A stretch of 64,000 bases of DNA from Paracoccaceae bacterium (GCA_965277275.1 CBDICG010000002.1:2322850-2386849), one strand, 5' to 3'. Positions 8,651 through 27,581 are shown, counted from the first letter of the stretch. Program-made: numbers and translations. Notes: generated from the letters alone by a model not told the origin.

Positions 8651-8849
8651 TCTTACCCGGGCGTCCGCTTGGCGGGTGTCCTGCCGGGGGAGGGGTGTTG
8701 TCGGAACGGGCCACACCTCTCTTCCAACCGGCGCCACGGATCACCATATCGTTTGTGACGGGCGCCCTGTCTTTGGTATGATTTCCCGGCGGGACACGCG
8801 CCCGCCCGCAGCGCGGCCGATGCACTGCCCCTCGCGATCCAAGAGTGAC

Positions 8850-9506
8850 ATGATGAAACGCACAGTCCTCCTCTCCCTTCTTGCGACGGCGCTTTCCGCC
8901 GGGCCGATGCTCGCCAGCGACAACGTTGCCCAGATCACGCAGGATGTCGCCGCCAACTCCGCCACCATCGACCAGACGGAGGCTGCGGGCGGCGAGGTGA
9001 CTGTCGAGCAGATCGGCGCGGAGAACTCCACCGTCGTGACGGATGTCGGCACCGAGAGCGCCCTGCTCGTCGATCAGCGGGGCGAGGCACAGAGCGCGTT
9101 TGTCCGCCTGAGCGGCGTCAACAACCAGGGCGAGCTGAGCCAGGCCGGTGAACGCAACATCGCCGATCTTGCGATCTCGGGCGAGGTGAACACCTTCTCC
9201 ATCAGCCAGTCGACCACGCCGAACACGCGCCACGTCAACGGCAACGAAGTGGTGCTGGAACAGGCCGGGTTCGGAAACACCGCGCTGCAGACGCAGATCG
9301 GACGCGACAATCAGATGACCCTGCGCCAGAACGGTGTGTCGAACCATGCCGACCTTCTTCAGGATGGTGACAGCAATATCATGACACTGGAGCAGTTCGG
9401 CGATCAGAACTCGGCCAGCTTGCAGCAATTCGGCTTCTCGGCGCCGTCGATCTCGATCACGCAGACCGGCGGGATGTCTGTGCAGATCACCCAGACCGGT
9501 CAGTAA
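8850..9506 (+). CDS. csgB: Curlin subunit 3, shorter (CsgB-like nucleator candidate)
   Basis: Signal peptide MMKRTVLLSLLATALSAGPMLA; curlin repeats richer in R/E/L; last curlin in the operon. Confidence 0.75.
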   Translation: MMKRTVLLSLLATALSAGPMLASDNVAQITQDVAANSATIDQTEAAGGEVTVEQIGAENSTVVTDVGTESALLVDQRGEAQSAFVRLSGVNNQGELSQAGERNIADLAISGEVNTFSISQSTTPNTRHVNGNEVVLEQAGFGNTALQTQIGRDNQMTLRQNGVSNHADLLQDGDSNIMTLEQFGDQNSASLQQFGFSAPSISITQTGGMSVQITQTGQ

Positions 9507-10305: not shown

Positions 10306-11197
10306 GCTCGGCTCCACGCGGGCGGCGTCTCGTCCGAGGGCTGCGCCTGGATTGCAGCCCGGCCCACAGCTCTCTCGCCCAATCTGTGCGACGGATACGC
10401 GATTGGCGTGCGGATGCAGCGGGGGTCAGCCCGATCCCGAACGCGGTTTCCCGATTGGCAACAAGGCGCGCCCGAGCGCGGGAAAATCCCTTTGCGCTGC
10501 GCGATGGTCCTAAGGGCATAGGGAGCAAAGAGGCGACCCGTTGCATACTGGCCTACTCTCCGCCCCGACGCGCCTCGCGTGCCCGCTTTTTGCCGGATCA
10601 GGCGCATCTGCCGCGACTGATCCGGGCGACAGCAAGTGACACGGCAACGCAGTGGCGGACACCCCGTGCGCCCGCTTTCGCCAGCCTCCCCCGTTCACGG
10701 GCGAGCGTGGTCCATCGTGGGCTTGCCCACCACCAACGTGCCTTCGTAGCCTTCGCAAGGGGCGCAACGAACTACGCGCGCATCCCTCTCTGACCGCCTC
10801 CGACCGTCGCTTCCGCCCATCGCGCTGTGTCGCAGATCATCGAGCCTGCGCTCGGAATGCACCGCACGAAAGCCGCGCGCCGCGTGCCAAAACGCGGGGC
10901 GCGCGCATCTCTGCGCATCTGCTGGCGGATCGATGCCGACGCCTCGCGGCCGCAAGCGCTTGTATGTTGGGGCCTTCATGACCTTTGCCCATTGCTGCCA
11001 CGTTTTGTCCATATCCGGATGCTCATGATCCTGCCTACAACGCTTGGGGAGGCGACTATGCTGCACAGAAGGCTGCCACTTCTGGTATCTCTGAACTTGC
11101 AGGCAAGGCCCGTCTTTCGGCACCGCGGATGCGATGCCGGAGCCGTAAGAATTTCGGCCGTCAGCGCGATTGCGACCAACAGCATGAGGCGACCGAT

Positions 11198-13654
11198 ATG
11201 AGTCTATTTCAGGCCGCACCACACCGGAGCATTTCCGACGCCGTGGCAGATCTCTGGCAATCACCGCCGGACGCCCTGAGCAGCTTCACGGCTGCTGGGG
11301 CCCTTATGAGAATCCCGGACGATCTGGCCGTCGTGTCGTCCGCCAACCTCGCAGACATGGATCTTGTCGCCCATCCGGGGGGATGCGGCTGCTTTGGCTG
11401 CGGCGTGCGCGATGACGACGAGGGCGCCGGAACCGGGCCTGTCCTGGTGTCTTCGAGCCTGCAGGCGGCCTCGCTTCAGGATCTGGCCGACTACTTGCGC
11501 GAGGGCTACTGGTCCGACTCCAACTGGTACTCTTTCAACTGGAACATGACCGGGTCGGGCAGCAACTCCAATTCCGGTGAACTCCTCTATAATCTGAGCG
11601 GGTACGACTTTTCCGATGAGATCTACGATCGGGAAGACACGAACGGGATCTCGAATGCGCGCAAGGAACTTGTGCGCGACAGTTTCGATCTGTTTGAAGA
11701 GGTCTTGGGGATCAACTTCACCGAGACGACGTCGCAGGACCCGAGCGACGTGGATTTCTTCTTCTCGGATAACGACGGTGGAGCCTACGCCTCGACGTGG
11801 ATCAACACGTCGTCGGGTACAAGCTCTATCAGTTTCGTCAACGTCGCCGCGGACTGGAGCGGAAGCACGTCGACCTTCGACGACTACACGCTGCAAACCA
11901 TCCTGCACGAGATCGGTCATGCGCTCGGCCTGGGACACCAGGGGAACTACAACGGCTCGGCCGGGTATCCGGGCAACGCAAAGTTTGCCAACGATTCCTG
12001 GCAGGCGTCCATGATGTCGTATTTCTCACAGAGCGAGAACTCGACGATCCCCGCCGACCGCGAGTTCCTCCAGACGCCGATGTCGGTGGACTGGCTGGCC
12101 CTCGAAGAGATGTACGGCGATCAGAGCTTCGGTGGCACGACCTTTGGGCTTCAGAATGCCTTCGAGGGCGATACGGTCTACGGGTTCAACACGAATATCA
12201 GCGCGTCTGTCAGCGAGATCTGGGCCCTCTTCGCCGACTACGCGGATCGGACCGCCTCGACGATTGTCGACGGCGGCGGAAGGGATACGCTGGATTTCAG
12301 CGGCTATTCCGAGAACCAGCGCATCGACCTGCGGCCATCGTCGACCAACTCGACGACGCCCGTCTCGTCCGATGTCGGCGGCCGGGTCGGGAACCTGACG
12401 ATTGCCGTGGGAACGGTCATCGAAAACGCTGTAACGGGCTCGGGTGACGACACGATCACCGGCAACGACGCGGATAACCTGATCGTTGCGAATGGCGGCG
12501 ACGACACCATCGCGGGTGGTCTGGGCGATGACACGATCGAAGGTGGCGGCGGGACGGACACGCTTGTGCTCGGCGCAGACCTCGAGTCGACGTCCATCTC
12601 GCAGCAATCTGCCGACAGGTGGATCTTCTCGCTGGAAGGCGGGACGCGGTACGACGCAAGCTCCGTGGAGTTCGTACAGTTTACCGACACGACGGTTGCT
12701 GTCGACGATCTCGAGGAAACCGGGGATGTCGAGGAGCCGGAGCCCGTTCTCCCGGGCGATGCCCTCACCGACTTCACGGATGACGGCACCAGCGACGTGC
12801 TTTGGCGCGACGGCGCGTCCGGGCGCACCGGCTACTGGGAAATGGATGGCGGAGCGCGCACGTGGAACGAAGTCGGCACCGTCACCACGGCATGGGACAT
12901 CGTGGGTTCGGGCAACTTCTCGGGCAGCAGCGCAGATGACGTTCTTTGGCGCAACACTGAGACGGGCCGGACCGGCTACTGGGAGATGGACGATGGCGAC
13001 TTCACCTTTGTCCAGCTCTCGACTGTCGGCCTGAATTGGGATGTCTTCGGTGTCGGCGACTTCGACGGCAACGAACAGGATGACATCCTGTGGAGAGATA
13101 CCGATTCCGGTCGGGTCGGATACTACCGGATGGAGAACGGCAATTTCACCTGGACCCCGCTCTCGACCGTCTCCGAGACCTGGCAGATTGTCGGCACCGG
13201 TGACTTCGACGGAAACGGTCAGGATGACATTCTTTGGCGCGACACCGCCACGGGTCGGACCGGATACTACGAGATGGACGGCAGCGAGTTCTCCTGGAAC
13301 GAGCTTGCGACTGTCGATCTCGACTGGAAGGTCGTTGGCACCGGCGATTTCAATGGCGATGGCGAGGCCGATATCCTCTGGCGCAACACCGAATCCGGGC
13401 GCAATGGCTATTGGGAAATGACGGATGGCGACTTCGCGTGGAGAGAGATTTCCGGCGCGAGCGGCAACTGGGAAGTCGCGGCAACGGGCGACTACTCCGC
13501 CGACGGGAGCGACGACATCCTGTGGCGCGACACGAACTCCGGCCGGACCGGTTACTGGGACGTCGACGGATCGTCCACATCATGGACAGAGTTGGGCGTT
13601 GTCGGCCTGAACTGGGATGTCGAGGGAACCGCACCGGATCCGTGGTGGGTCTAG
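11198..13654 (+). CDS. Serralysin-like M10 zinc metalloprotease with RTX repeats and six C-terminal FG-GAP/VCBS-like repeats
   Basis: HEIGHALGLGH, Met-turn SMMSYF, GDTVYGFN, GGxGxD repeats, six 48-aa D-F-x-G-x-G-x-D-D-I-L-W-R repeats. Start uncertain (11198 has GAGG). Confidence 0.9.
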   Translation: MSLFQAAPHRSISDAVADLWQSPPDALSSFTAAGALMRIPDDLAVVSSANLADMDLVAHPGGCGCFGCGVRDDDEGAGTGPVLVSSSLQAASLQDLADYLREGYWSDSNWYSFNWNMTGSGSNSNSGELLYNLSGYDFSDEIYDREDTNGISNARKELVRDSFDLFEEVLGINFTETTSQDPSDVDFFFSDNDGGAYASTWINTSSGTSSISFVNVAADWSGSTSTFDDYTLQTILHEIGHALGLGHQGNYNGSAGYPGNAKFANDSWQASMMSYFSQSENSTIPADREFLQTPMSVDWLALEEMYGDQSFGGTTFGLQNAFEGDTVYGFNTNISASVSEIWALFADYADRTASTIVDGGGRDTLDFSGYSENQRIDLRPSSTNSTTPVSSDVGGRVGNLTIAVGTVIENAVTGSGDDTITGNDADNLIVANGGDDTIAGGLGDDTIEGGGGTDTLVLGADLESTSISQQSADRWIFSLEGGTRYDASSVEFVQFTDTTVAVDDLEETGDVEEPEPVLPGDALTDFTDDGTSDVLWRDGASGRTGYWEMDGGARTWNEVGTVTTAWDIVGSGNFSGSSADDVLWRNTETGRTGYWEMDDGDFTFVQLSTVGLNWDVFGVGDFDGNEQDDILWRDTDSGRVGYYRMENGNFTWTPLSTVSETWQIVGTGDFDGNGQDDILWRDTATGRTGYYEMDGSEFSWNELATVDLDWKVVGTGDFNGDGEADILWRNTESGRNGYWEMTDGDFAWREISGASGNWEVAATGDYSADGSDDILWRDTNSGRTGYWDVDGSSTSWTELGVVGLNWDVEGTAPDPWWV

Positions 13655-17104: not shown

Positions 17105-17806
17105 ATGGCATCAAACGACACGATCGGTTCTGGCGGTTTTGGCGGTTCTGGCGGTTCTGGCGGTTCTGGCGGTTCTGGCGGTTCCGGCAGCTTCGAGGCC
17201 GAGATGCGGGCCGCGCTGTTTGACGCGCGGCGGTCCATGCGCACGCGCCGTTTCACCCAGGACAGCCCGCTGTTGCCGGATATCTGGCTGGCGTTCGCCG
17301 CCGCTCCGAGTGCTCCTCTCGACATGCTCATCAATCCAACGCGCGGCAAGCGCACAGGCATGGTCGCGCAGGAAATGCGCGGTCTCGTCGAGGCATTGCG
17401 CGATACCGGGCGGTCCGACGAGGCCACCGTGCGGGGAAGCTGGGGCACCGCCGAGCCGCGTATCGTCCACATGCCGGGAATGATCGTCGCGCGGCTCTAT
17501 TTCAACGAGCTGATGCGCATCGTCCTGCCCAGTACGAATTGGTGGGACACACAGATGGGCCTGCTCGATGGCGGCCCGTTCAGCCGTGCCGAGCGTGATG
17601 AGAACGGCTCCGAAGCGGAGCGCCACCACCTCTTCAACGCCGCCCAGATCAACAAGCTGATCGATGTCTACGACGCAGTCGTGGCCGAGGATCAGCCGCT
17701 CGAGACGATCAAGTCCCTCCAGCCGCCGCCCTACGAGTTTCTCAAGCTCATCGAGGTCGCTGCGCTGGTCGTCGGGCGGCATCTCGAAGGGCAGATCGAG
17801 GCATGA
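17105..17806 (+). CDS. N-terminal part of an S8 peptidase gene, ends at an in-frame TGA
   Basis: ATG after GGGGG RBS; GS-rich start, then RFTQDSPLLPDIWLAF...LYFNELMRIVLPSTNWW. Same frame as 17840..19216. Confidence 0.75.
   Translation: MASNDTIGSGGFGGSGGSGGSGGSGGSGSFEAEMRAALFDARRSMRTRRFTQDSPLLPDIWLAFAAAPSAPLDMLINPTRGKRTGMVAQEMRGLVEALRDTGRSDEATVRGSWGTAEPRIVHMPGMIVARLYFNELMRIVLPSTNWWDTQMGLLDGGPFSRAERDENGSEAERHHLFNAAQINKLIDVYDAVVAEDQPLETIKSLQPPPYEFLKLIEVAALVVGRHLEGQIEA
17126..17188 (+). repeat. 9-bp in-frame tandem repeat (GGTTCTGGC)x7, two variant units, encoding a Gly/Ser tract
   Basis: Counted directly. Confidence 0.92.
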
Positions 17807-19216
17807 GACGAAGACGCCGCATCCGCTATTCTGCACCCGGTGCGCCTCTTCGCGTCGCTCTACGAGAAGTGGCCCGCCGACCCGACGCAACCCCGCTCGC
17901 GCGCCGTCATCTGGAACGTCACGCGCAACAGAAAGGCCGATCCGGCGATCGAGAAGTCGGTCAAGGCGATGAAAGCCGATGCGGGCCGAATGCTCTTCAG
18001 CATCGATTGCAGCGCGCTGCGCTGTGCCGTGATCGACAGCGGGATCGACACGCTGCACCCCGCCTTCCAAAACCGCGAGCCCAGGTCCGGCGAGCCTCGG
18101 TCGCGCGTCATTGGAACCTACGATTTCGGCGATCTGCGCTATGCCCTCGACCCGCGCTTTCTGGAAAAGCTGCGCGACCTCGTGCGCACCGGAACGCAGC
18201 CGCCGAGCGAGACCTCCCCGAAACGCGAGGATCGCGCCCTTGCGCGCACCCATCGCCGCTTTTCGGGCTACGATGCGCCGGGGACGGCGCAGATCCGCGA
18301 GGACCGTCTCGCGGACTACCTCCAGCTTGTGATTGACCGCGCCAATGCCGGGCTCGAGATCGACTGGGCCGTGGTCGAACCGCTCATCCACGAGCCCCTG
18401 ACGGACACCGTCGCTCCGCCTCCGCCGCGCCTCCCCCACGGGACGCAGGTCGCCGGGGTGCTGGCCGCCGATCACCCGCAAGCGGATGGCTCGCGGCTGG
18501 CGGGCGTTTGCCCGGATCTGCGCCTCTACGATCTCCGCGTCGTATCCGAAACGGAGGACAACGCGACAACCGTCGCGGCACATGATTTCGAGGTCATCGC
18601 GGCGCTGAAGTTTCTCGGGCACCTGAACGGGCGGGCCGACGAGCCCGCTGTGCACGCGGCCAACGTATCGGTCTCGATCCCGCATGACGTGTCCCGCTTT
18701 GCCTGCGGGCGCACACCCATCTGCGAGGAATGCGAGCGCCTCGTATCCTCCGGCGTCGCGGTCGTCGCTGCGGCGGGCAACTCCGGCTACAATGACGACG
18801 AGGATGTGGATGCCCGGTTCTACCGCTCCGGTTCGATCACGGATCCGGGGAATGCCGAGCTGGTGCTGACCGTTGGCTCGACGCATCGCGAGATGCCCCA
18901 CCAGTATGGCGTCAGTTACTTTTCGTCTCGCGGACCGACCGGCGATGGCCGGCGCAAGCCGGATCTCGTCGCTCCGGGGGAAAAGTTGAGCGTTCCGGCG
19001 CCGGGCGGGCGCCTCGATATCGTGGACGGAACGAGCTTCGCCGCGCCGCATGTCACGGGGGCCGCGCTCCTGATGATGGCCCGGCATACCGAGCTGATCG
19101 GGCGCCCCCAGCGCATCAAGGAAGTCCTGTGCAGCTCCGCCACGGATCTCGGCCGGGAGCCCTATTCGCAAGGCGCCGGCATGCTCGATGTGCTGCGGGC
19201 GCTGCAATCCATTTGA
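17807..19216 (+). CDS. S8 subtilisin-like serine protease catalytic domain (continuation after TGA; possible GTG start 17840)
   Basis: Triad intact: AVIDSGID, PHGTQVAG, AAGNSG, GTSFAAPHVTG. No signal peptide. Confidence 0.9.
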   Translation, partial: DEDAASAILHPVRLFASLYEKWPADPTQPRSRAVIWNVTRNRKADPAIEKSVKAMKADAGRMLFSIDCSALRCAVIDSGIDTLHPAFQNREPRSGEPRSRVIGTYDFGDLRYALDPRFLEKLRDLVRTGTQPPSETSPKREDRALARTHRRFSGYDAPGTAQIREDRLADYLQLVIDRANAGLEIDWAVVEPLIHEPLTDTVAPPPPRLPHGTQVAGVLAADHPQADGSRLAGVCPDLRLYDLRVVSETEDNATTVAAHDFEVIAALKFLGHLNGRADEPAVHAANVSVSIPHDVSRFACGRTPICEECERLVSSGVAVVAAAGNSGYNDDEDVDARFYRSGSITDPGNAELVLTVGSTHREMPHQYGVSYFSSRGPTGDGRRKPDLVAPGEKLSVPAPGGRLDIVDGTSFAAPHVTGAALLMMARHTELIGRPQRIKEVLCSSATDLGREPYSQGAGMLDVLRALQSI

Positions 19217-19231
19217 GAGGAGAATTGAACA

Positions 19232-22200
19232 ATGGCCAAGTTTACAATGGTCGCCGACGGGTTCGTGCCCAAGAAGGTGAAGGTCGCGCAGGGGCTGAAG
19301 ACAGGCTATGCGCCGAAGTCAAAGCGCACCCGGTCCGGCCTGCTCTCGGTGATCGGCGACGACGAGCGCAGCCGGTTCACCGACACGCATCTTGCCCCCT
19401 GGCGCATGATCTGCTCGCTGCGCATTCACGCGGCCTCCGGCGCGGTCATGATCGGAACGGGCTGGCTGATCGGCCCGAGGACGGTGCTGACGGCTGGCCA
19501 CTGCATCGCGACCCGCGAGCACGGTGCCCATGCCCGGATCGAGGTGATGGCCGGGCGCAACGGAGACGTCTTTCCGTTCGATACGAGGGTCGTCGACCAT
19601 GGCCGCATGGAGGTGCATCCACGCTGGGCCAACGGCTTCGATCCGGATCGCGATGTCGGCGTGCTGCATCTTCCCGATGAGCTTGGGCGCGAGACGGGAT
19701 GGTTCGCCACGGCCACCCCGACAGACGGGGAGCTCGCAGGACTCTTGGTGAACGTCGCGGGCTACCCGGGCTCGATCGAGGTCGGGGGCAGGCGCACGCG
19801 CGTCAACGGGCGCGAGCTGTGGTGGCACGCGGACGCCATCGCGCGGTCCGACGCCGAGCGCATCTTCTACGCCACCGATACGAGCGGCGGGCAGAGCGGC
19901 GGCCCGGTCTGGACAGCGACCGATCAGGGCGGCGCTCCGATCGGGATTGCCGTTCATGCCTATGGCGCGACGCAGCTGCGTCTGCCGGGCGGGCTCGCCC
20001 CCGCCATGGCCAACTCCGCGCCCCGGATCGACGCGGATCTCGCGGACCGCATCACCGACTGGATCGCGCAGAGCCATGCCATGGCCGAGATGGCAGCTCC
20101 ACCCGCGCCTCCGCACGGCACTTTCGGGTCGGGCATAGCCTCGGGCGCCGGGGCAGGAAACGGCTCCGGTGGCAGGCAAGGCGGAGGAGGCGCCGGTGGA
20201 GGGAGCGGCGGCGGTGGCCATCCGCCAACGGGCGGCGGTGGCAACTCGGACGGCGGAGGCGGTCGCAGTGGCGGCGGCAGCGGCGGCGGCGATGGCGGCG
20301 GCGGCCCGATCGACATCACCGAGCTGATGCGCCGCGTCTCGGATCCCGACGTCCCCTGGTCCGAGGTGGCGCCCTATCTCGCAGAAGACGAGACCTTTTC
20401 GCAGCCCTTCTCCCCGCGCTATCGCCTGTCGCCCGGTCCGGGCCAGCCGGTGCCGGAATCGGCGGCCGCACTCGATTGGCTCAATGCCGCCATTCGCGCC
20501 CGGCGACGGCGCCAGTTCAACCGGGACACGCGGCGGCGCCCCGGGGACCGCCGGATTGTCACGGACGGCGATTCCTGGTTCCTCCACCCGCTCATCACCG
20601 AAACATGGGGCGTCCTGCGCCCCCGCTATCTCGCGCTGAGCCTCGATGGTGCGGGCGACCTGGTCGAGGATATCGCGCGGGAGCGGCACGCAATCGCCGC
20701 AGCCCGCGAGATCGGAGCGCTGGCCGTCGTCCTCAGTGGCGGCGGGAACGATGTTCTGGCCGGGGGCGCCCTCGAAGAGGTTCTGACCGTTGGCGATGGG
20801 CAGGACCCGCGGACCTACATTGATCTCGCCGCCTACCGCGCCAAGGTCGACGCGGTTGTCGACGATCTGGGCGGCTATGCCCGTGCGCTGCTGACCGGCA
20901 ACGTCGGTCTGCACGTCTTCATGCACGGCTATGACCGGCCCCGCCCGATGCCCGGAGGCAAATGGCTGGAACGCCCGATGCGCGACCGGGTGCCCCCCGC
21001 GCTTCAGGCGGGCGTTGTCGGCCACATGATCGACGTTTTCAACGACGCGGTGGCAGAGCTTGCCGCCGATCTTGGCAGCCGCGCGCACTACGTCAACATG
21101 CGCGGTGCCGCGCCGCATCCCTGGTACGATGAGATCCACCCGAGCGACGCTGGCTTCGTCGAAGTCGGTAACCGGATGGATGCCGCAATCCGTGCCGCCC
21201 TTGGCGAAGCGGCCCCGGAGTTCGCAGGCAGCGCGCTGCCGCCCCTCGCCCCGCACCTGATGCGCAACGTCGAGGACGCGGACGAGGCCGTCGCCCGCCG
21301 GCGCTATATCGCCCGGATGACGGAGGCGGGCCATCCCGTGCTTTCGGTGCGTCCACTGGGCATGCAGGGGCCGCAGCCCGAGAGCGTCGCGCGCGTGCCG
21401 GGCAGGGAGCGCGTCGTCCTGCCCGCTGGTACCATGGCGGCGACAGAGGGGCTGGACTTCGGCGACGATGTCGCTCTCGAAGTCGTTCTGGGCGCGCCGG
21501 ATTTCCTTGCCGCCCGGTTCCTGCGCGATGGCGCGGCGCGGGCCTCTGCCGTCTGCCGCGTGCGCCTGCCCGGCGGTTTCGGCTCCGGCTCGTTGCTAAG
21601 GGGCGACGTGATCCTGACCAACCACCACGTCCTGCCCGATGCAGCCACGGCGGCGCAGGCGATTGCGGAGTTCGACTTCGAGGAAGGCGGCACGCCGATC
21701 CCGGTGCGCCTCGAACCCGAGAGGCTCTTTATCGCAAGCGAGGGGCACGACTTCGCGCTGGTCGCCTGTGACGCGTCGGCGCTCGCCGGGGTAACCCCGA
21801 TCGATCTTCCGCTCGAGCCATCGGGGATCGTCGAGGGCGCGCCGGTCAACATCATCCAGCACCCCGCCGGACGCCAGAAAGAGGTCGCGCTGCGCAACAA
21901 CGACGTGCTCTCTGTCCTCTCCGGCACCATGCGCTATCGCACGGATACGGAGGGTGGCTCCTCCGGCTCGCCGGTGTTCGACGATTCCTGGCGGCTCGTG
22001 GCGCTGCACCGTGCCGGTCTGGCGGGCGCCTTCAACCAGGCGGTGCGGATCGAGGCGATTGCCGGGTTCCTCGAGGCGCGCCTCGCCAACGGCGACATCG
22101 CGAACGCCACGCTCCTGCGCCAGGTCCTGCAGGGAACGGCGCCGGAGCTTGGGTTCTTCGGGCGGGCCGGGGCTTTCGACACGCTCACGCCCGAAGTCGA

Positions 22201-23146
22201 GCTCCCGAGTTTCACGGGAGACGGCGTTTTCGCGGATGTCGGGTTCTGGAACATCCAGGATTTCTTTGGCGACCCCTCGGAGGCGCGCATACGCCGCGTG
22301 GCCGAGCTGCTGACCGACATGAACATGGATGGGATGGGCCTGATGGAAGTGTCCGAGGCGCCTGTTCGGGCTCTGGCGGCGCGGATGAACGCGATGGGCG
22401 GCAATGTCGGCGTGCTGGCGTTCGACACCGCCGGGACGCGGGACCACGCGTTGCTCTTTGACCGCGACACCACCACCGTGCGCCTGATGCGGGAGGTGCT
22501 GGATCGCCATGCCGGTTTGATCGGAGAGCGCATCCAGGGCCGGCTTGTCTTCCCGCGTGAACCGCTCATCGCGGAGGTGCATGTCGGAGACGCCCGCTTC
22601 GTGATGATCGTGGTGCATCTGAAATCCAAGGCCGGCAGCAACAAGCCCTTGTCAGAACGCCGCCGCCGCCGCGCCGCCGAGATCCTGACGATGATCGTCG
22701 ACGATATCCGCACGGATACGGGCCTGCCCGTGGTCATTGGCGGCGATTTCAACGAGGCGCTCGATACCGATGTGCTGTCGAGCCTCACGGATGCGCCCGG
22801 CCACATGACCCTCACCGCGGATGACCACGAGGATGGGGCCATCACGCTGCTCAACCCACGGTTCGCCTCGCTGATCGACCACGTGATCGTGGCCGGTGAC
22901 CTGCAGCTTGGCGACATCGAGGATGACGACCTCGCCATCGTGCGGTTCGACCGCTCGATCTCGGATTTCGTCGACACGCTCTCGGATCATACACCGCTGG
23001 TGATGCGCGTCGTGATGCGGGACGAGGCGGTGCCCCGCCAAGTGCCGGGCGATGGCGCAGGCGGATCCGCTGGCGGCGGCGGCGAAGCGCCCGACGCGAT
23101 CGACATTCCGCAGGGCGCGAGCGCAGTCCGGGTCAGCTTCGACTAG
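19232..23146 (+). CDS. Multidomain protein: V8-like trypsin / Gly-rich linker / SGNH hydrolase / trypsin / EEP nuclease-phosphatase
   Basis: LTAGHC..DVGVL..TSGGQSGGP; GDSWF..GGGND..DEIHP; TNHHV..DFAL..TEGGSSGSP; WNIQ..MEV..VHLKS..GGDFNE..IDH..LSDH. Strong GAGAGGAG RBS. Confidence 0.88.
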   Translation: MAKFTMVADGFVPKKVKVAQGLKTGYAPKSKRTRSGLLSVIGDDERSRFTDTHLAPWRMICSLRIHAASGAVMIGTGWLIGPRTVLTAGHCIATREHGAHARIEVMAGRNGDVFPFDTRVVDHGRMEVHPRWANGFDPDRDVGVLHLPDELGRETGWFATATPTDGELAGLLVNVAGYPGSIEVGGRRTRVNGRELWWHADAIARSDAERIFYATDTSGGQSGGPVWTATDQGGAPIGIAVHAYGATQLRLPGGLAPAMANSAPRIDADLADRITDWIAQSHAMAEMAAPPAPPHGTFGSGIASGAGAGNGSGGRQGGGGAGGGSGGGGHPPTGGGGNSDGGGGRSGGGSGGGDGGGGPIDITELMRRVSDPDVPWSEVAPYLAEDETFSQPFSPRYRLSPGPGQPVPESAAALDWLNAAIRARRRRQFNRDTRRRPGDRRIVTDGDSWFLHPLITETWGVLRPRYLALSLDGAGDLVEDIARERHAIAAAREIGALAVVLSGGGNDVLAGGALEEVLTVGDGQDPRTYIDLAAYRAKVDAVVDDLGGYARALLTGNVGLHVFMHGYDRPRPMPGGKWLERPMRDRVPPALQAGVVGHMIDVFNDAVAELAADLGSRAHYVNMRGAAPHPWYDEIHPSDAGFVEVGNRMDAAIRAALGEAAPEFAGSALPPLAPHLMRNVEDADEAVARRRYIARMTEAGHPVLSVRPLGMQGPQPESVARVPGRERVVLPAGTMAATEGLDFGDDVALEVVLGAPDFLAARFLRDGAARASAVCRVRLPGGFGSGSLLRGDVILTNHHVLPDAATAAQAIAEFDFEEGGTPIPVRLEPERLFIASEGHDFALVACDASALAGVTPIDLPLEPSGIVEGAPVNIIQHPAGRQKEVALRNNDVLSVLSGTMRYRTDTEGGSSGSPVFDDSWRLVALHRAGLAGAFNQAVRIEAIAGFLEARLANGDIANATLLRQVLQGTAPELGFFGRAGAFDTLTPEVELPSFTGDGVFADVGFWNIQDFFGDPSEARIRRVAELLTDMNMDGMGLMEVSEAPVRALAARMNAMGGNVGVLAFDTAGTRDHALLFDRDTTTVRLMREVLDRHAGLIGERIQGRLVFPREPLIAEVHVGDARFVMIVVHLKSKAGSNKPLSERRRRRAAEILTMIVDDIRTDTGLPVVIGGDFNEALDTDVLSSLTDAPGHMTLTADDHEDGAITLLNPRFASLIDHVIVAGDLQLGDIEDDDLAIVRFDRSISDFVDTLSDHTPLVMRVVMRDEAVPRQVPGDGAGGSAGGGGEAPDAIDIPQGASAVRVSFD

Positions 23147-23240
23147 CGATGAGGGGCCGCGCGCGGGCGCGGCTCATGCCGCCCACAGGGCATCCCACCC
23201 GCCGAGTGTCGGGGGAATGCGCCACACAGGGAGAGATGAC

Positions 23241-24680
23241 ATGGCCGGAACCAGAAAAGACATCGCCACGCTCGGCGGGGATTGGCCGGATGAGCTTTTA
23301 TGGTACGCGCGCGCCGTCGCAGAGCTGCGCACGCGGCCTCTGACAGACCGCACAAGCTGGGCCTATCTTGCCGCGCTGCATGGGTTGAACGGGGAGGGCT
23401 GGATCGATCAGGGGATCCTTCCCCAGAACACCCCGGCCCCGCCTCCCAACGAAATGCAGCTGATGTTCAACCAGTGCCAGCATGCCGGGTGGTTCTTCCT
23501 GCCGTGGCATCGCGGCTATCTTGCGGCGTTCGAGGCGATCCTCGGCGGCTGGATCGCCCAGCAGGGCGGGCCGCAGGATTGGGCCTTGCCCTACTGGAAC
23601 TATCTCTCCGATGCCCCGGGCGCGCGGGATCTTCCTCCCGCATTCCGCGATGCGACCCTGCCCGACGGAACGCCGAACGCGCTGGCCCGGGCCGTCCGTG
23701 GGCCAGCCACCACGCTTGGCCCGCTGCCCTGGACGGATTCCCGGGATATCACCTTGGCATCCCAGACCGCCGAGGCCTTTTACACATCGGATCCGGGGGG
23801 GCTCGGGTATGGCGGTCCGATCAGCGGCTTTGCCTCGCAGGGGAACGCCTTTGGCGCGGTGGAGAATGATCCCCACAACCTTGTCCACGTGATGATCGGC
23901 GGCGGGACAGCGCAGGGTCAGCAGGCAGGCTGGATGCTCGATCCCGACTTTGCCGCCCTCGATCCGGTGTTCTGGGTGCATCACTGCAATATCGACAGGC
24001 TCTGGGCGGCCTGGATGACCGACCCGACACATGTGCAGGAAGTCTCTGCCGCCTGGGGCAATGGCCCGTTTCCCCGCCGCTTTGCTATGCCCTCCGCCGA
24101 TGGCTCCGGGATCGAGACATTCGCGCCCGAAGAAACGTTGCCCAACGGGGCGCTGGCGCCCGATTATGACGATCTCACAGCGGGCACGGGCATCCTGCCC
24201 GCCCCCGAGATCGCTGCCGCCGCCCCGCCTGCCCGCCCTCCTGCGCCGCTGCTGATCGGTGCAAACGATGCGCCGCTCACCGTGGACGCCGAAGCCCGGA
24301 CAACCCAGCTCGCCCTGCGGCGCGCGCCCGTCCCCGAGCTTGCGTCCGCCGTGCCCGCGCGCGTGTTCCTCAGTGTCGAAGGGGTACGCGGCCAAGCCCC
24401 GAGCGGCGTGCTGCGCGTCTCGGTCTCCGCGCCGGGCGGCGAGGAAGCGTTTCGCACCGCCATCGCCTTCTTCGGCCTCGGCAAGGCCTCCCGGACAGAC
24501 GGCAGCCATGCGGGCAACGGTCTTGCCGCGACGGTCGATGTCTCGGCCGAGCTGGGCGCCCTCCTGGCCGAGGGCGGCGCGGCGCTCGATGCGCTCGACC
24601 TGGCCCTGGTGAGGCCAACCGATGGAGAGCCGCCGATCACGGTGGATCGTATCAGCCTGCACACCCAGCCGGGCGCCTGA
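23241..24680 (+). CDS. Tyrosinase (type-3 copper protein) with C-terminal extension domain
   Basis: CuA: ALHG..CQH..FFLPWHR. CuB: PHNLVH..DPVFWVHHCNIDRLW. No signal peptide. Confidence 0.92.
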   Translation: MAGTRKDIATLGGDWPDELLWYARAVAELRTRPLTDRTSWAYLAALHGLNGEGWIDQGILPQNTPAPPPNEMQLMFNQCQHAGWFFLPWHRGYLAAFEAILGGWIAQQGGPQDWALPYWNYLSDAPGARDLPPAFRDATLPDGTPNALARAVRGPATTLGPLPWTDSRDITLASQTAEAFYTSDPGGLGYGGPISGFASQGNAFGAVENDPHNLVHVMIGGGTAQGQQAGWMLDPDFAALDPVFWVHHCNIDRLWAAWMTDPTHVQEVSAAWGNGPFPRRFAMPSADGSGIETFAPEETLPNGALAPDYDDLTAGTGILPAPEIAAAAPPARPPAPLLIGANDAPLTVDAEARTTQLALRRAPVPELASAVPARVFLSVEGVRGQAPSGVLRVSVSAPGGEEAFRTAIAFFGLGKASRTDGSHAGNGLAATVDVSAELGALLAEGGAALDALDLALVRPTDGEPPITVDRISLHTQPGA

Positions 24681-24681
24681 G

Positions 24682-25455
24682 ATGCGCAGCGCGCGCGCCG
24701 CGTGGGCCCAGCTGCGGACCGGTCCGCTGCCCGTGCTGCTGATCCTCAGCCTCCTTGGCTTCATCGCGCTCGGGGTCATTCCCGGCGCCGCGGCCGCCGC
24801 CGTATGCGGGAGCCTGCGCCTCGCCGATCTGTGGTCCCTCGGTGGGCCGGCGCTCACGGGGGTGAGCCCTGCATCCGTAGCGCTCGACTGGGGGGTCATG
24901 GTCGTCGCGATGATGAGCGTCGTGATCACGCCGCAGGTGGCCCATGTCCTGCGCCTGAGCCCTCCGCGTGCCCGGGGTGCCGCGGCGGCCTCCGTCTATC
25001 TCGGCTTCCTGTCCGTCTGGCTTCTGGCGGGGGCGCTCCTGCTGCCGCTCGGGATGCTCCATGTCCAGACAGCGCCCGGTGGCCTTGCGCCGCTTCTGGC
25101 GGTCGGGTTCGCGCTTGTCTGGAGCGCCTCTCCTCCGGCACAGGCCGCGCGCAACCGGTGTCACCGGCTTGGCCGGGTCGGCGGGTTCGGGCCACGCGCG
25201 AGGTGGGACAACGCGCGGATCGGCATCCGCACCGGCCTCTGGTGCGTTGCCGCATGCTGGCCGGTCATGCTCATCCCGCTCACGATCGGCGGGGCAGCGC
25301 ATGTGCCCGCGATGGCCATTGCCGCGCTCTATCTCCTGCTGGAGCGGATCGGGCCCCCGGCCCCTGTCCGCTGGAGCCTTCCCCCCGTGATCTCGCTCGT
25401 CCGGCAGGCCCTCCTGCCCGTTGCAAGAGTCCGCCGCACCAGCCGCGCCATCTGA
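24682..25455 (+). CDS. DUF2182-like putative metal-binding integral membrane protein
   Basis: DWGVMVVAMM, ARNRCH, GLWCVAACWPVM, HVPAMA..LLER; several TM segments; 1 bp after the tyrosinase. Confidence 0.8.
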   Translation: MRSARAAWAQLRTGPLPVLLILSLLGFIALGVIPGAAAAAVCGSLRLADLWSLGGPALTGVSPASVALDWGVMVVAMMSVVITPQVAHVLRLSPPRARGAAAASVYLGFLSVWLLAGALLLPLGMLHVQTAPGGLAPLLAVGFALVWSASPPAQAARNRCHRLGRVGGFGPRARWDNARIGIRTGLWCVAACWPVMLIPLTIGGAAHVPAMAIAALYLLLERIGPPAPVRWSLPPVISLVRQALLPVARVRRTSRAI

Positions 25456-25655: not shown

Positions 25656-27581
25656 ATGCCGCTCTACCTGTTTTCCGGCTATGCGCCGAGCGATTTTCAG
25701 ACCATCCAAGGCTCGACGCCGGGCAGCCAAGCGTCAAAAATGTTGCGCGTACCCGACGACACGACGCACGCCTTCGAGGTCAACGATGACGACGGGATGC
25801 TATCGGGATCCGGCGGGTCGGTCAGGACCGCGGGCGATACAAACCAGAAAGCCAGTGTCTACCAGGGCAATGCCGCCGCCGCCTCAGGCACAGTGTATGT
25901 ACAAAGTGTTATGTCCTTCGAAGATCAGGCTGGCACGCCCCACAAGGCCTACCTTGTGGGGATCGAGGAGAGCGGCGAACGCTTTTATGTCTTCGAAGCG
26001 CCGCCACCGGCGGGTGGAACGGATCTCACGGTCATCTCGTCGTCCCCACCTCCGAGCGAGGGCGTCGCCTATTCCGCCCTTGCCGGCAACGACATCCGCG
26101 ATTCGGACGCGCGGCCCGCCACGGATGCCTCGGGGAACGAGTACATTGCATCCGGCTCCGGGGATGACGCGCTCACCACGCGCGGCGGAAACGACACCGT
26201 CGACGCAGGGGAAGGGAACGATACCGTCACCGCCGGAGACGGCGACGACAGCATCGAAGGCGGGGCAGGCAACGATTCGCTCGACGGCGGCGCCGGGAAC
26301 GACACGCTCTCGGGGGGAGCAGGCAATGACACGCTCCATGGCGACGCCGGCAACGACCAGATCGACGGCGGCGCGGGCAGCGACATCATCTATGGCGGCG
26401 AGGGCAACGACACCCTCGCTGGCAACGAGGGCACCGATTGTCTGCGCGGGGATGCCGGCAACGACGTCATCTTCGGCGGCGCCGGGGACGACGCCGCGAC
26501 CGGAGGGGCAGGCAACGATACGCTCTACGGCAACGACGGGGCGGATGTTCTCTATGGCGGCGACGGCGACGACTTCCTGATCGGGGACGGTGGCAACGGC
26601 GAAACCGGGAACGATACGCTGATCGGTGAAGCCGGAGATGACACGCTGTTCGGTCAGGGCGGCGATGACGTCATGACCGGTGGAAGCGGCAACGACTTCT
26701 TCCTTGTCAGCGCGGGCAACGACACGATCACGGATTTCAACGGGGGCAATACCGGATCGATCGATGACCGCGACCTGATGAACAACGACTTCGTCAACTT
26801 GTCGACTTACTACGACAACCTCAGCCAGGTGCGCGCCGACCACGCCGATGACGGCGTCCTGAACCAGTCAAACACGTCTGACAGCCACGGAAACGCGGTC
26901 GATTACTCGGATAACACCCAGTTCGGGGCCTCTTCCCTGACAATGCAGGGCGCAACTTCGCAAAGCTTTACCTACGACACCACGGGGCTGGAGTGCTTTG
27001 CGTCGGACACCCTTATCGACACGCCGAAAGGTGCGGTGCGGGCAGGGGCGCTCCGTCCAGGGGATCTCGTGACGACGCTCGATCATGGGCCTCAGCCGCT
27101 CCTGTGGGTCGGGGTGCGCCGGCTGGAGGGGCATCACCTCAGGGGCAACGTCAGGCGCCGTCCTGTCCTTGTCCGGCAAGGGGTGCTGGGCGCCCGCCGC
27201 GATCTCTTCGTGTCGCGCCAGCACGGGCTGGTTGTCGGCGATAACCTCTCCCGCGCGATCCACCTCTGCCGGACGATGAAAGGGGTGCGTATCGCCCATG
27301 GCAAGCGGCACGTCACCTACGTGCATCTCCTGTTCGAGCGCCATCAGATCGTCATATCCGAGGGCGTGCCGAGCGAGAGCTTCTATCCCGGGCCGAGCGC
27401 GCTCCGGACAATGGCCCCCGAGGCGCGCCGCGCGGTGCTGCGGCTCTTGCCGGGTCTGGATCGCCCCGAGGCCACGACCGGTTTCGCGGTGGTGCGCGCG
27501 GTCTACGGCCCCACGGCGCGGCCCTTTGCGCCGCCCCGGCGGGCTGCCGCCGAGCGGCCCGCCCTCGACATCGCCTCCTAG
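25656..27581 (+). CDS. RTX Ca-binding repeat protein with C-terminal Hint (bacterial intein-like) domain
   Basis: Many GGAGNDxL nonapeptides; ECFASDTLIDTPKG..GDLVTTLDHG..YVHLLFERHQIVISEGVPSESFYPG. ATG after GGAG. Confidence 0.92.
   Translation: MPLYLFSGYAPSDFQTIQGSTPGSQASKMLRVPDDTTHAFEVNDDDGMLSGSGGSVRTAGDTNQKASVYQGNAAAASGTVYVQSVMSFEDQAGTPHKAYLVGIEESGERFYVFEAPPPAGGTDLTVISSSPPPSEGVAYSALAGNDIRDSDARPATDASGNEYIASGSGDDALTTRGGNDTVDAGEGNDTVTAGDGDDSIEGGAGNDSLDGGAGNDTLSGGAGNDTLHGDAGNDQIDGGAGSDIIYGGEGNDTLAGNEGTDCLRGDAGNDVIFGGAGDDAATGGAGNDTLYGNDGADVLYGGDGDDFLIGDGGNGETGNDTLIGEAGDDTLFGQGGDDVMTGGSGNDFFLVSAGNDTITDFNGGNTGSIDDRDLMNNDFVNLSTYYDNLSQVRADHADDGVLNQSNTSDSHGNAVDYSDNTQFGASSLTMQGATSQSFTYDTTGLECFASDTLIDTPKGAVRAGALRPGDLVTTLDHGPQPLLWVGVRRLEGHHLRGNVRRRPVLVRQGVLGARRDLFVSRQHGLVVGDNLSRAIHLCRTMKGVRIAHGKRHVTYVHLLFERHQIVISEGVPSESFYPGPSALRTMAPEARRAVLRLLPGLDRPEATTGFAVVRAVYGPTARPFAPPRRAAAERPALDIAS

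Follow-up and report, generated by a model that had tools for sequence, protein, structure and literature searches.

The outputs known so far from prokaryotic protease-gated death and immune systems are nucleases, hydrolases and pore formers. In this work, we describe a locus in which two protease genes stand beside a copper oxidase gene. It lies in a 64,000-nucleotide stretch of DNA from a Paracoccaceae bacterium (GCA_965277275.1, CBDICG010000002.1:2322850-2386849; the whole stretch is called the window), where positions 17105-25455 hold four co-directional genes of the + strand. They encode an S8 subtilase, a fusion protein that joins two trypsin-fold proteases to an SGNH hydrolase and an EEP (endonuclease/exonuclease/phosphatase) domain, a tyrosinase, and a PpoB2-family membrane protein, with gaps of 15, 94 and 1 nt (Table 1). 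An earlier reading of the same DNA (the original prediction) had proposed this layout, and the gene calls confirm it. The S8 belongs to a family almost always paired with the metallo-beta-lactamase (MBL) fold zymogen nuclease of published protease-effector modules, and in one alphaproteobacterial subclade the MBL has been replaced by the 1304-aa two-protease/SGNH/EEP protein. We read the locus as a variant of proteolytically activated effector systems, of the 'conflict' or abortive-infection type, with the tyrosinase as a likely further substrate; our confidence in this reading is evenly balanced between acceptance and doubt.

Two described systems are close to the protease-nuclease part. 'System 3' of Kaur, Burroughs, Iyer & Aravind 2020 (eLife; PMC7159879) is mostly alphaproteobacterial and combines a trypsin (sometimes with S8) with a NucA-like endonuclease and sometimes with EAD1/STAND; it includes peptidoglycan-attacking accessory effectors, and a proteolytic cascade deploying the nuclease was proposed for it. 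Among the loci compared here (cited by L numbers), L236 is a complete System 3, with Trypsin_2-Endonuclease_NS, V8-like trypsin, EAD1-trypsin, STAND NTPase and animal-haem-peroxidase-like genes; the last of these (18816-20420) closes the operon and is a second oxidative enzyme there. Protease domain 1 of the window fusion is homologous to the V8-like trypsin of L236, and the trypsin-like peptidase core of System 3 has its counterpart in the two trypsin-fold domains of the fusion. NucA adjoins the S8-fusion pair in L002, where a 640-aa NucA protein is encoded just upstream of S8, and occurs also in L226, L246 and L236. Unlike System 3, the scanned window genes have no Endonuclease_NS; an EEP domain takes its place, and SGNH is added, all fused in one protein. 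EAD1, STAND and Death-like Pfam matches are absent from the four genes and the 10 scanned neighbours, and the window S8 is a separate gene of an MBL-associated family. PMC7159879 makes no mention of tyrosinase, haemocyanin or PpoB2.

The preprint of Evans et al. 2025 (PMC12642450) described three protease-associated MBL clades, tied to trypsin-like, caspase-like and S8 proteases, in which the MBL is a zymogen double-stranded DNA nuclease opened by two cuts; the S8-MBL clade (clade 3) was not characterised experimentally by these authors. The window S8 falls in this MBL-associated family, and the locus shares with clade 3 the conserved pairing of a protease gene with an effector gene and the principle that cuts at specific sites open a latent death effector; in the window, these sites are predicted. 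In contrast, MBL is missing from the window and its sister loci, no fused sensor is recognisable, and the effector is a multi-enzyme fusion; since it contains two proteases itself, it would add an extra tier to the cascade. The claim of the original prediction that the four-gene set has no description was therefore too strong for the protease-nuclease part, given System 3 and the S8-MBL clade. For the copper-oxidase link, our literature search found no publication that connects tyrosinase or haemocyanin to such protease-effector systems, and the link appears to be undescribed.

The last two genes resemble the ppoB1-ppoB2 melanin operon of Marinomonas mediterranea, in which a tyrosinase gene is followed by that of a PpoB2-family (COG5486) membrane protein. 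A copper-chaperone function was described for Marinomonas PpoB2 (PMC2855505), and a reference title in the same paper presents the PpoB1 tyrosinase as activated by sodium dodecyl sulfate. The likeness rests on gene order and families; no protease genes are described with ppoB1-ppoB2, unlike in the window. PF09948, the old DUF2182, is now named 'PpoB2 copper chaperone' in Pfam. Because DUF2182 is a tyrosinase copper chaperone, genes 3 and 4 are a known melanin operon, and the protein listed as DUF2182 in the original prediction is no unknown.

The S8-fusion pair

A GTDB scan with the S8 alignment gave 80 loci of the S8 family from many phyla. An N-terminal domain is common to 76 of them, and 74 carry an MBL-fold gene of about 385 aa, usually directly downstream of S8, that matches the PADLOC models LmuA, Avs1a and RTasMBL (E 1e-48 to 1e-32). 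Extra genes are frequent in the S8-MBL operons, namely an upstream patatin and a variable downstream gene, e.g. Tle1-like or TPR-S, and related loci carry STAND, TIR and EAD1 genes. In one locus of Acidobacteriota (L063, 14711-19266), a TIR protein and a ParA-like-NB-ARC-TIR-Sel1 protein are encoded directly upstream of a same-family S8. In a neighbour-joining tree, the window S8 is nested in the family and the fusion-type S8s form one clade, sister to alphaproteobacterial S8-MBL-Tle1 operons, a topology that fits a single replacement of MBL by the fusion. The fusion gene occupies the MBL position next to S8, and tblastn with two MBL partners as queries found no MBL gene in the window, L001, L002, L005 or L160.

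The fusion is rare. Three full-length homologues were found in 5.8 billion proteins (49-53% identity); the GTDB scan with the fusion alignment returned only the already known Limibaculum locus and one SGNH-only match, a metagenome scan gave no further full-length fusion, and an exact-sequence look-up of the window protein returned no record. A same-family S8 lies directly upstream of the fusion in all full-length fusion loci (L001, L002-4, L005). Additionally, the closest S8 homologue (L284, 64% identity) precedes an open reading frame (ORF) starting MAKL...SGLLSVIGADQR, which is the N-terminus of the fusion as well. These observations support the S8 and the fusion as a conserved pair, or module. 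Near the pair, the other loci encode Amidase_2 (two loci), an Amidase_3-glucosaminidase-ankyrin protein, an Endonuclease_NS protein of 640 aa, and a CHAT protease together with an EEP protein. We considered whether the variable neighbours (amidases, NucA, CHAT, tyrosinase) have an adaptor domain in common and rejected this, as all-against-all BLAST relates only the two Amidase_2 proteins.

Most of the domain make-up given in the original prediction was recovered, namely S8, Trypsin, Trypsin_2, EEP and tyrosinase. The SGNH segment of the window stays below the Pfam cut-off (Lipase_GDSL_2, E 5.8e-5, 24 bits vs 32.9); its blocks are invariant in four homologues, and precomputed PF13472 matches exist in P0002 and P0004. 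The catalytic residues of the three proteases, of SGNH and of EEP and the copper-binding histidines are all present and invariant among homologues, so that the catalytic motifs that had looked intact are so by comparison as well. The window S8 aligns end to end with homologues of 707-727 aa (51-56% identity), all of which keep its D/H/S triad motifs AVIDSGID, HGTQVAG and GTSFAAPH unchanged. A rough scan for hydrophobicity and motifs, used in place of SignalP, found no hydrophobic N-terminus, twin-arginine motif or RTX nonapeptide in the S8, the fusion or the tyrosinase, in agreement with the absence of Sec, Tat and RTX signals noted earlier; in PpoB2, the hydrophobicity scan gave at least 5 transmembrane-like segments. 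GGC-rich repeats at 17131-17190 and 20250-20305 (Gly-Ser or Gly runs) are expanded relative to homologues, and unrelated contig ends align there.

The S8 gene of the window carries an in-frame TGA. In contigs of runs X1 and X2, which come from two independent studies, the stop reads unchanged, with 0 alternative bases in four runs. Since homologues that are single proteins of about 710 aa can be aligned right through the stop, at a linker that is gapped and not conserved, the alignment identifies the S8 as a single interrupted gene and not two genes. Selenocysteine and a two-gene design were considered as explanations of the TGA and are unlikely, as the position is unconserved or gapped and the homologues are single proteins. 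An AF2 model of the S8 homologue P0145 (pLDDT 75, pTM 0.83) has ProN-Tk-SP 3afg as its best Foldseek match, over 685 columns, followed by pro-subtilisin E and CspC/CspA; a search of the PDB found no sequence homologue of the S8 N-terminal region. Because the model matches unprocessed pro-subtilases over nearly its whole length, the conserved N-domain is best read as a retained propeptide with a helical insert.

Table 1. Features of the four-gene locus and of neighbouring genes, in positions of the window.
Feature	Coordinates	Strand	Remarks
S8 subtilase gene	17105..19216	+	703 codons, read-through translation; Pfam and PADLOC subtilase matches
S8 N-terminal part, 233 aa	17105..17803	+	Window-specific Gly-Ser repeat, propeptide-like domain (RFTQDSPxLPDxW...), start of helical insert
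In-frame TGA	17804..17806	+	Separates propeptide-like part from catalytic domain
Remaining ORF, S8 catalytic domain	17840..19216	+	GTG start; Peptidase_S8, E 2e-33
Fusion gene, 1304 aa	19232..23146	+	Pfam Trypsin, Trypsin_2, Exo_endo_phos; gap to S8 15 nt
Predicted propeptide of protease 1, 38 aa	19232..19345	+	Ends SGLL before SVIGDDER
Protease domain 1, V8/glutamyl-endopeptidase-like	19346..20086	+	Motifs TAGHC, GGQSGGP
Gly-rich low-complexity linker	20117..20335	+	Only poorly conserved fusion stretch; assembly contigs of other sequences pile up
SGNH/GDSL-type hydrolase domain	20549..21151	+	GDSW, GGGND, DEIHPS blocks
Protease domain 2	21482..22111	+	Trypsin_2, E 1e-31; preceded by invariant Glu750-Val751
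EEP domain	22229..23017	+	Exo_endo_phos, E 3.5e-9; N, E, D-N, D-H motifs invariant
Pro-tyrosinase, 479 aa	23241..24680	+	Pfam Tyrosinase and C-terminal DUF7868; gap 94 nt
DUF7868 C-terminal domain of tyrosinase	24252-24668	+	Pfam; linker between catalytic domain and DUF7868
PpoB2-family membrane copper chaperone	24682..25455	+	PF09948, E 7e-22; starts 1 nt past tyrosinase stop
Curlin-repeat protein	8676-9503
M10/serralysin-like metalloprotease with FG-GAP repeats, RTX	10985-13651	+	Type I secretion substrate type
RTX and Hint_2 protein	25680-27578	+	Type I secretion substrate type
S8, P-domain and RTX protein, 1313 aa	32883-36824	-	Type I secretion substrate type

Predicted cleavage sites and order of activation

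Proteases of the V8 family need a free mature N-terminus for activity and become active when a protease of a different class removes their propeptide. In the fusion, residues 40-245 can be aligned to the mature glutamyl endopeptidase 1p3c from its residue 2 (VIGDDGR) and to V8 protease from residue 3. Because the alignment to mature V8-type enzymes begins at residue 40, residues 1-38 look like the propeptide of protease domain 1. This 38-aa extension, left over when protease 1 is aligned to mature enzymes, recalls the staphylococcal cascade that runs from aureolysin through V8 (SspA) to staphopain. The proteases of that cascade are secreted virulence enzymes with signal peptides, whereas in the window an S8 is the predicted activator, and the protease forms one chain with other enzymes.

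The sequence GLLSV is invariant in four homologues and in L284. The corresponding junction was extracted in 63 relatives of protease domain 1. All 56 relatives in which no S8 was detected nearby have Glu at P1, the residue ahead of the predicted cut; this is compatible with cutting by a Glu-specific enzyme, either the protease itself or one acting in trans. In the window, L002 and L160 the residue is Leu, as it also is in L001, L005 and L284, and in L233 it is Ala; all of these adjoin S8. Glu is kept in three S8-linked loci (L228, L231, L279). As Leu or Ala at P1 suits subtilases, the shift fits a delegation of the first cut to S8. Further along the fusion, Glu750 and Val751 before protease domain 2 are invariant, and a comparable LE-R(V/I)I stands ahead of the Trypsin_2-nuclease fusions in L236 and L238; taken together, these features suggest that protease domain 1 cuts at Glu750/Val751. 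Stand-alone V8-like trypsins (L201-L280, e.g. L236 12439-13347 and L226 4958-5851) share the N-terminus M-x-E/D-L-K-S-V-x-K/N-P and have an extension of about 65-75 aa that ends in Glu before the mature SVIG/TVIG and may serve as a propeptide, as a tag for partner binding or as a tag for export.

On this reading, a trigger would free S8 from its retained propeptide-like N-domain, and S8 would then cut the fusion after Leu38 (SGLL/SVIG), giving the free N-terminus that V8-type endopeptidases need. The active, probably Glu-specific domain 1 would cut at Glu750/Val751, so that protease 2 and EEP would be freed or activated and SGNH split off, and an attack on the cell's DNA and envelope may follow. 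The adjacent pro-tyrosinase, copper-loaded by PpoB2, would be the most likely further substrate, with removal of its C-terminal DUF7868 lid leading to quinone and melanin formation. The protease cascade of the original prediction is partly supported, by the conserved S8-fusion pair, by its kinship to published proteolytically activated effectors, and by sequence-level evidence for a multi-tier zymogen cascade, namely the V8-type propeptide and the covariation at P1.

Tyrosinase and protease-linked copper oxidases

The catalytic domain of the tyrosinase (PF00264, E 2e-33) has six copper-binding histidines in two triads, of which H47, H81, H90, H212, H216 and H247/248 are invariant, and the tyrosinase has a full-length PDB homologue, 8b74_A (E 8e-53). 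In related proteins, DUF7868 co-hits PPO1_KFDV, the C-terminal domain family of plant polyphenol oxidases. Bacterial tyrosinases with a C-terminal extension are activated by its removal (PMC10526336). An AF2 model of the window tyrosinase (16 sequences, mean pLDDT 62) is of too low quality to show whether DUF7868 blocks the active site. A Glu in the lid linker occurs in all aligned protease-linked tyrosinases (Glu323 in the window) and is absent in the two closest M36-linked relatives, which is weak evidence for this residue as a cleavage site. A 58.6-kb contig of runs X1 and X5, which differs from the window at 16 places over 23928-24021, is flagged as a '321-nt skip' (window 23606-23928); it is most likely a second, divergent tyrosinase elsewhere in the sample, not a deletion variant.

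Relatives of protease domain 1 were collected in a metagenome scan, which gave 80 loci. A tyrosinase adjoins the trypsin in 10 of them; if only the 37 loci of 4 kb or longer are counted, it does so in 7. Locus L233 has S8-trypsin-tyrosinase-trypsin, the same order as in the window; L248 and L206 have tyrosinase-trypsin, L261 trypsin-tyrosinase, L226 and L246 tyrosinase-lipoprotein-trypsin-NucA, and L238 tyrosinase-trypsin-[trypsin-endonuclease I]. In L236, a Tat-less tyrosinase and a PpoB2-like gene stand divergent from the System 3 operon. DUF7868 is present in the five complete or nearly complete protease-linked tyrosinases scanned, with PPO1_DWL in most and PPO1_KFDV in two. The S8-centred set of 80 loci, used as a control, contains no tyrosinase.

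A similar association is seen with a second family of copper proteins. In a patatin-S8-MBL-c27 operon of Solirubrobacterales, a haemocyanin-like gene (Hemocyanin_M and Hemocyanin_C, copper-binding His intact) lies between MBL and c27. About 12 of 32 bacterial haemocyanin-like loci have S8, S8-MBL or trypsin-STAND genes at a distance of up to 10 kb, and several of them have these in the same gene run. Examples are S8-MBL-haemocyanin-like in L197 (3934-4824), a haemocyanin-like gene followed by S8 in L180, and [trypsin-STAND]-[EAD1-trypsin]-haemocyanin-like in L193 (5312-7270); L127 (6980-8554), L169-L171, L192 and L191 are further cases, and the protease-linked loci come from Actinomycetota, Bacteroidota and Acidobacteriota. 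Locus L127 had been taken as a replacement of MBL by haemocyanin, which is wrong, since this locus has an MBL gene with the haemocyanin-like gene behind it.

The logic of a serine protease acting on a serine protease and then on a latent type-3 copper oxidase, with quinone/melanin as the output, is that of the arthropod prophenoloxidase (proPO) cascade, and the haemocyanin-type proteins (PF00372 and PF03723) beside S8-MBL in other bacteria have the fold of arthropod prophenoloxidase (PPO). In the window, no protein has a CLIP or Hemocyanin Pfam match; the oxidase is a PF00264 protein with a C-terminal lid, whereas PPO is cleaved near its N-terminus, and the window copy is apparently intracellular, in contrast to the haemolymph location of the arthropod cascade. 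The parallel is an analogy of logic, not a shown homology of the cascade. A wider proposal, which we regard as tentative and on balance doubtful, is that bacterial protease cascades, built from S8 and/or V8-like trypsins and often coupled to MBL nucleases, STAND NTPases or EAD1 adaptors, count proteolytically unmasked type-3 copper oxidases among their outputs, either tyrosinases with a PPO-type C-terminal lid or haemocyanin/PPO-like proteins. Melanisation or quinone cross-linking would then be a prokaryotic death or immune effector and a possible antecedent of the arthropod proPO system, and the window a compact four-gene version.

Weighing of the explanations and meaning of the locus

Several findings weigh against a working four-gene effector system. 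The set of four genes, expected by the original prediction to be co-conserved, is not: none of the three other full-length fusion loci has a tyrosinase or PpoB2 gene. Cleavage at Leu38/Ser39 and Glu750/Val751 is a prediction only, and as the Leu cases at P1 form one clade, the covariation rests on few independent events. Neither a sensor NTPase nor an EAD or TIR gene was found in the window (Pfam and PADLOC, four genes and 10 neighbours). PADLOC v2, the check proposed earlier, gave no system-level match; its matches in the window are to generic catalytic-domain models only (subtilase, IetS, RT-Protease, Avs1b, LmuA), with none for the tyrosinase and PpoB2. Furthermore, the assignment as 'cytoplasmic' fits the window copy but fails elsewhere, as four protease-linked tyrosinases (L233, L248, L226/L246, probably L238) have Tat signals or signal-peptide ends. 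The trypsins of the same loci have the conserved N-terminal extension of about 65-75 aa (M.(E/D)LKSV.KP...) and no signal peptide. A simple cytoplasmic substrate relation thus fails in some loci; as the tyrosinases carry export signals and the trypsins do not, either cleavage takes place before or with export, or it follows envelope breakdown, or the proteases serve maturation instead of immunity.

The alternative that survives best concerns the strain itself: with its S8 truncated, the system may be a decaying remnant, inert here whatever its ancestral role, and we put the chance of this only a little short of even. The TGA shows no variation across the four runs of the two studies, no Shine-Dalgarno-like sequence for re-initiation was found before GTG 17840, and the first cascade step may therefore fail, so that the cascade is probably disabled or attenuated in this strain. 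In a related locus of a metagenome-assembled genome (L160, 9896-12318), S8 is also split, over two frames, by either an assembly error or a second inactivation; there, S8 is followed by a stand-alone 277-aa trypsin with a GLL/SVIG junction. Against decay, the ORFs downstream of S8 are unbroken, keep the invariant catalytic residues and show normal codon bias, and the stop falls exactly between the propeptide-like and catalytic parts. Subtilisin propeptides can act in trans, and low-level read-through of the TGA is possible.

It is also conceivable, at a probability that we would call low but appreciable, that two unrelated neighbours have met, an S8-fusion conflict module and an ordinary melanin operon that stands downstream by chance under its own promoter. 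Among the 80 closest tyrosinase loci in GTDB, 77 have PpoB2 downstream and none has the fusion, and the closest tyrosinase relatives (59-61% identity) are in autonomous tyrosinase-PpoB2(-M36-like) operons that lack S8 and trypsin. One locus of this set, L063, has a same-family S8 8 kb away, with the tyrosinase-PpoB2 pair on the upstream side of the S8 and its TIR genes. The lack of tyrosinase in the S8-centred loci and in the other fusion loci points the same way. The 94-nt gap, which holds a GGGAGAG ribosome-binding site for the tyrosinase gene, could also hold a promoter; however, no terminator-like site was found in it on the + strand, in a promoter/terminator scan that was otherwise uninformative. 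Chance is likewise opposed by the recurrence of tyrosinase beside the same trypsin family, including the same order downstream of S8, by the repeated pairing of tyrosinase-PpoB2 with System 3 in L236, and by the haemocyanin-like genes, an independent type-3 copper family, beside S8-MBL modules. The first and the last of these associations also give independent support to the idea of the original prediction that a protease activates a latent copper oxidase. Most tyrosinase-PpoB2 loci are autonomous. The adjacency in the window is not conserved in sister loci, yet it matches a recurrent and apparently undescribed association of these protease families with type-3 copper oxidases.

The explanation that we find least convincing, and consider improbable, leaves immunity aside and takes the proteases as dedicated maturation enzymes of pro-tyrosinase in an exported or lysis-released degradative set (proteases, esterase, nuclease, peptidoglycan hydrolases, melanin), serving antagonism, predation, scavenging, or melanisation of envelope or biofilm: the export signals just described, the lipoprotein gene of L226 and L246, the peptidoglycan amidase and glucosaminidase genes of three fusion loci, the RTX-type secreted proteases in which the window region is rich, and the M36-like peptidase gene carried by the closest tyrosinase operons, a hint that a private protease generally accompanies a pro-tyrosinase, all agree with it, but S8, fusion and stand-alone trypsins have no recognisable signal peptide, Tat motif or RTX repeats, the usual partners of the S8 family are MBL zymogens with matches to models of defence systems, and STAND, TIR and EAD1 genes occur in related loci. 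The M36-like third gene (about 505 aa, marginal fungalysin, Peptidase_M36, match) is found in L281 (12287-13795), L282 (9203-10714), L283 (4969-6495) and L009, and its product may be a private activating protease. It was rejected as a general tyrosinase partner, being limited to a few loci and absent from the window and most other tyrosinase loci.

Around the four genes, the window encodes an AraC regulator, an NmrA-like protein and RTX-type secreted proteins; searches of the full 64,000 nucleotides for Rfam families and tRNA genes gave no matches. The window sequence is carried by runs X1-X10, under one organism label, and the RNA libraries are oligo-dT. These libraries, the only RNA runs under the same label, yielded about 1 read; since they are oligo-dT, the bacterium is suggested to be an associate of a eukaryotic host or culture. 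The source genome is not among the GTDB species representatives, where the best tyrosinase match reaches 57%.

If the tyrosinase link is non-functional, the S8-fusion pair nevertheless represents a known module in a rare multi-enzyme form, with about 5 loci. The predicted cuts at Leu38/Ser39 by S8, and at Glu750/Val751 and possibly tyrosinase Glu323 by the V8-like domain, lend themselves to simple biochemical tests. If the link is functional, enzymatic quinone/melanin formation would be a chemically new output of prokaryotic protease-gated death or immune systems, and latent bacterial tyrosinases would gain an in vivo activator, hitherto missing. Finally, the haemocyanin/PPO-fold genes beside S8-MBL or trypsin-STAND-EAD1 runs open the long-standing question of the origin of the arthropod proPO cascade, together with its protease gating, to direct tests.

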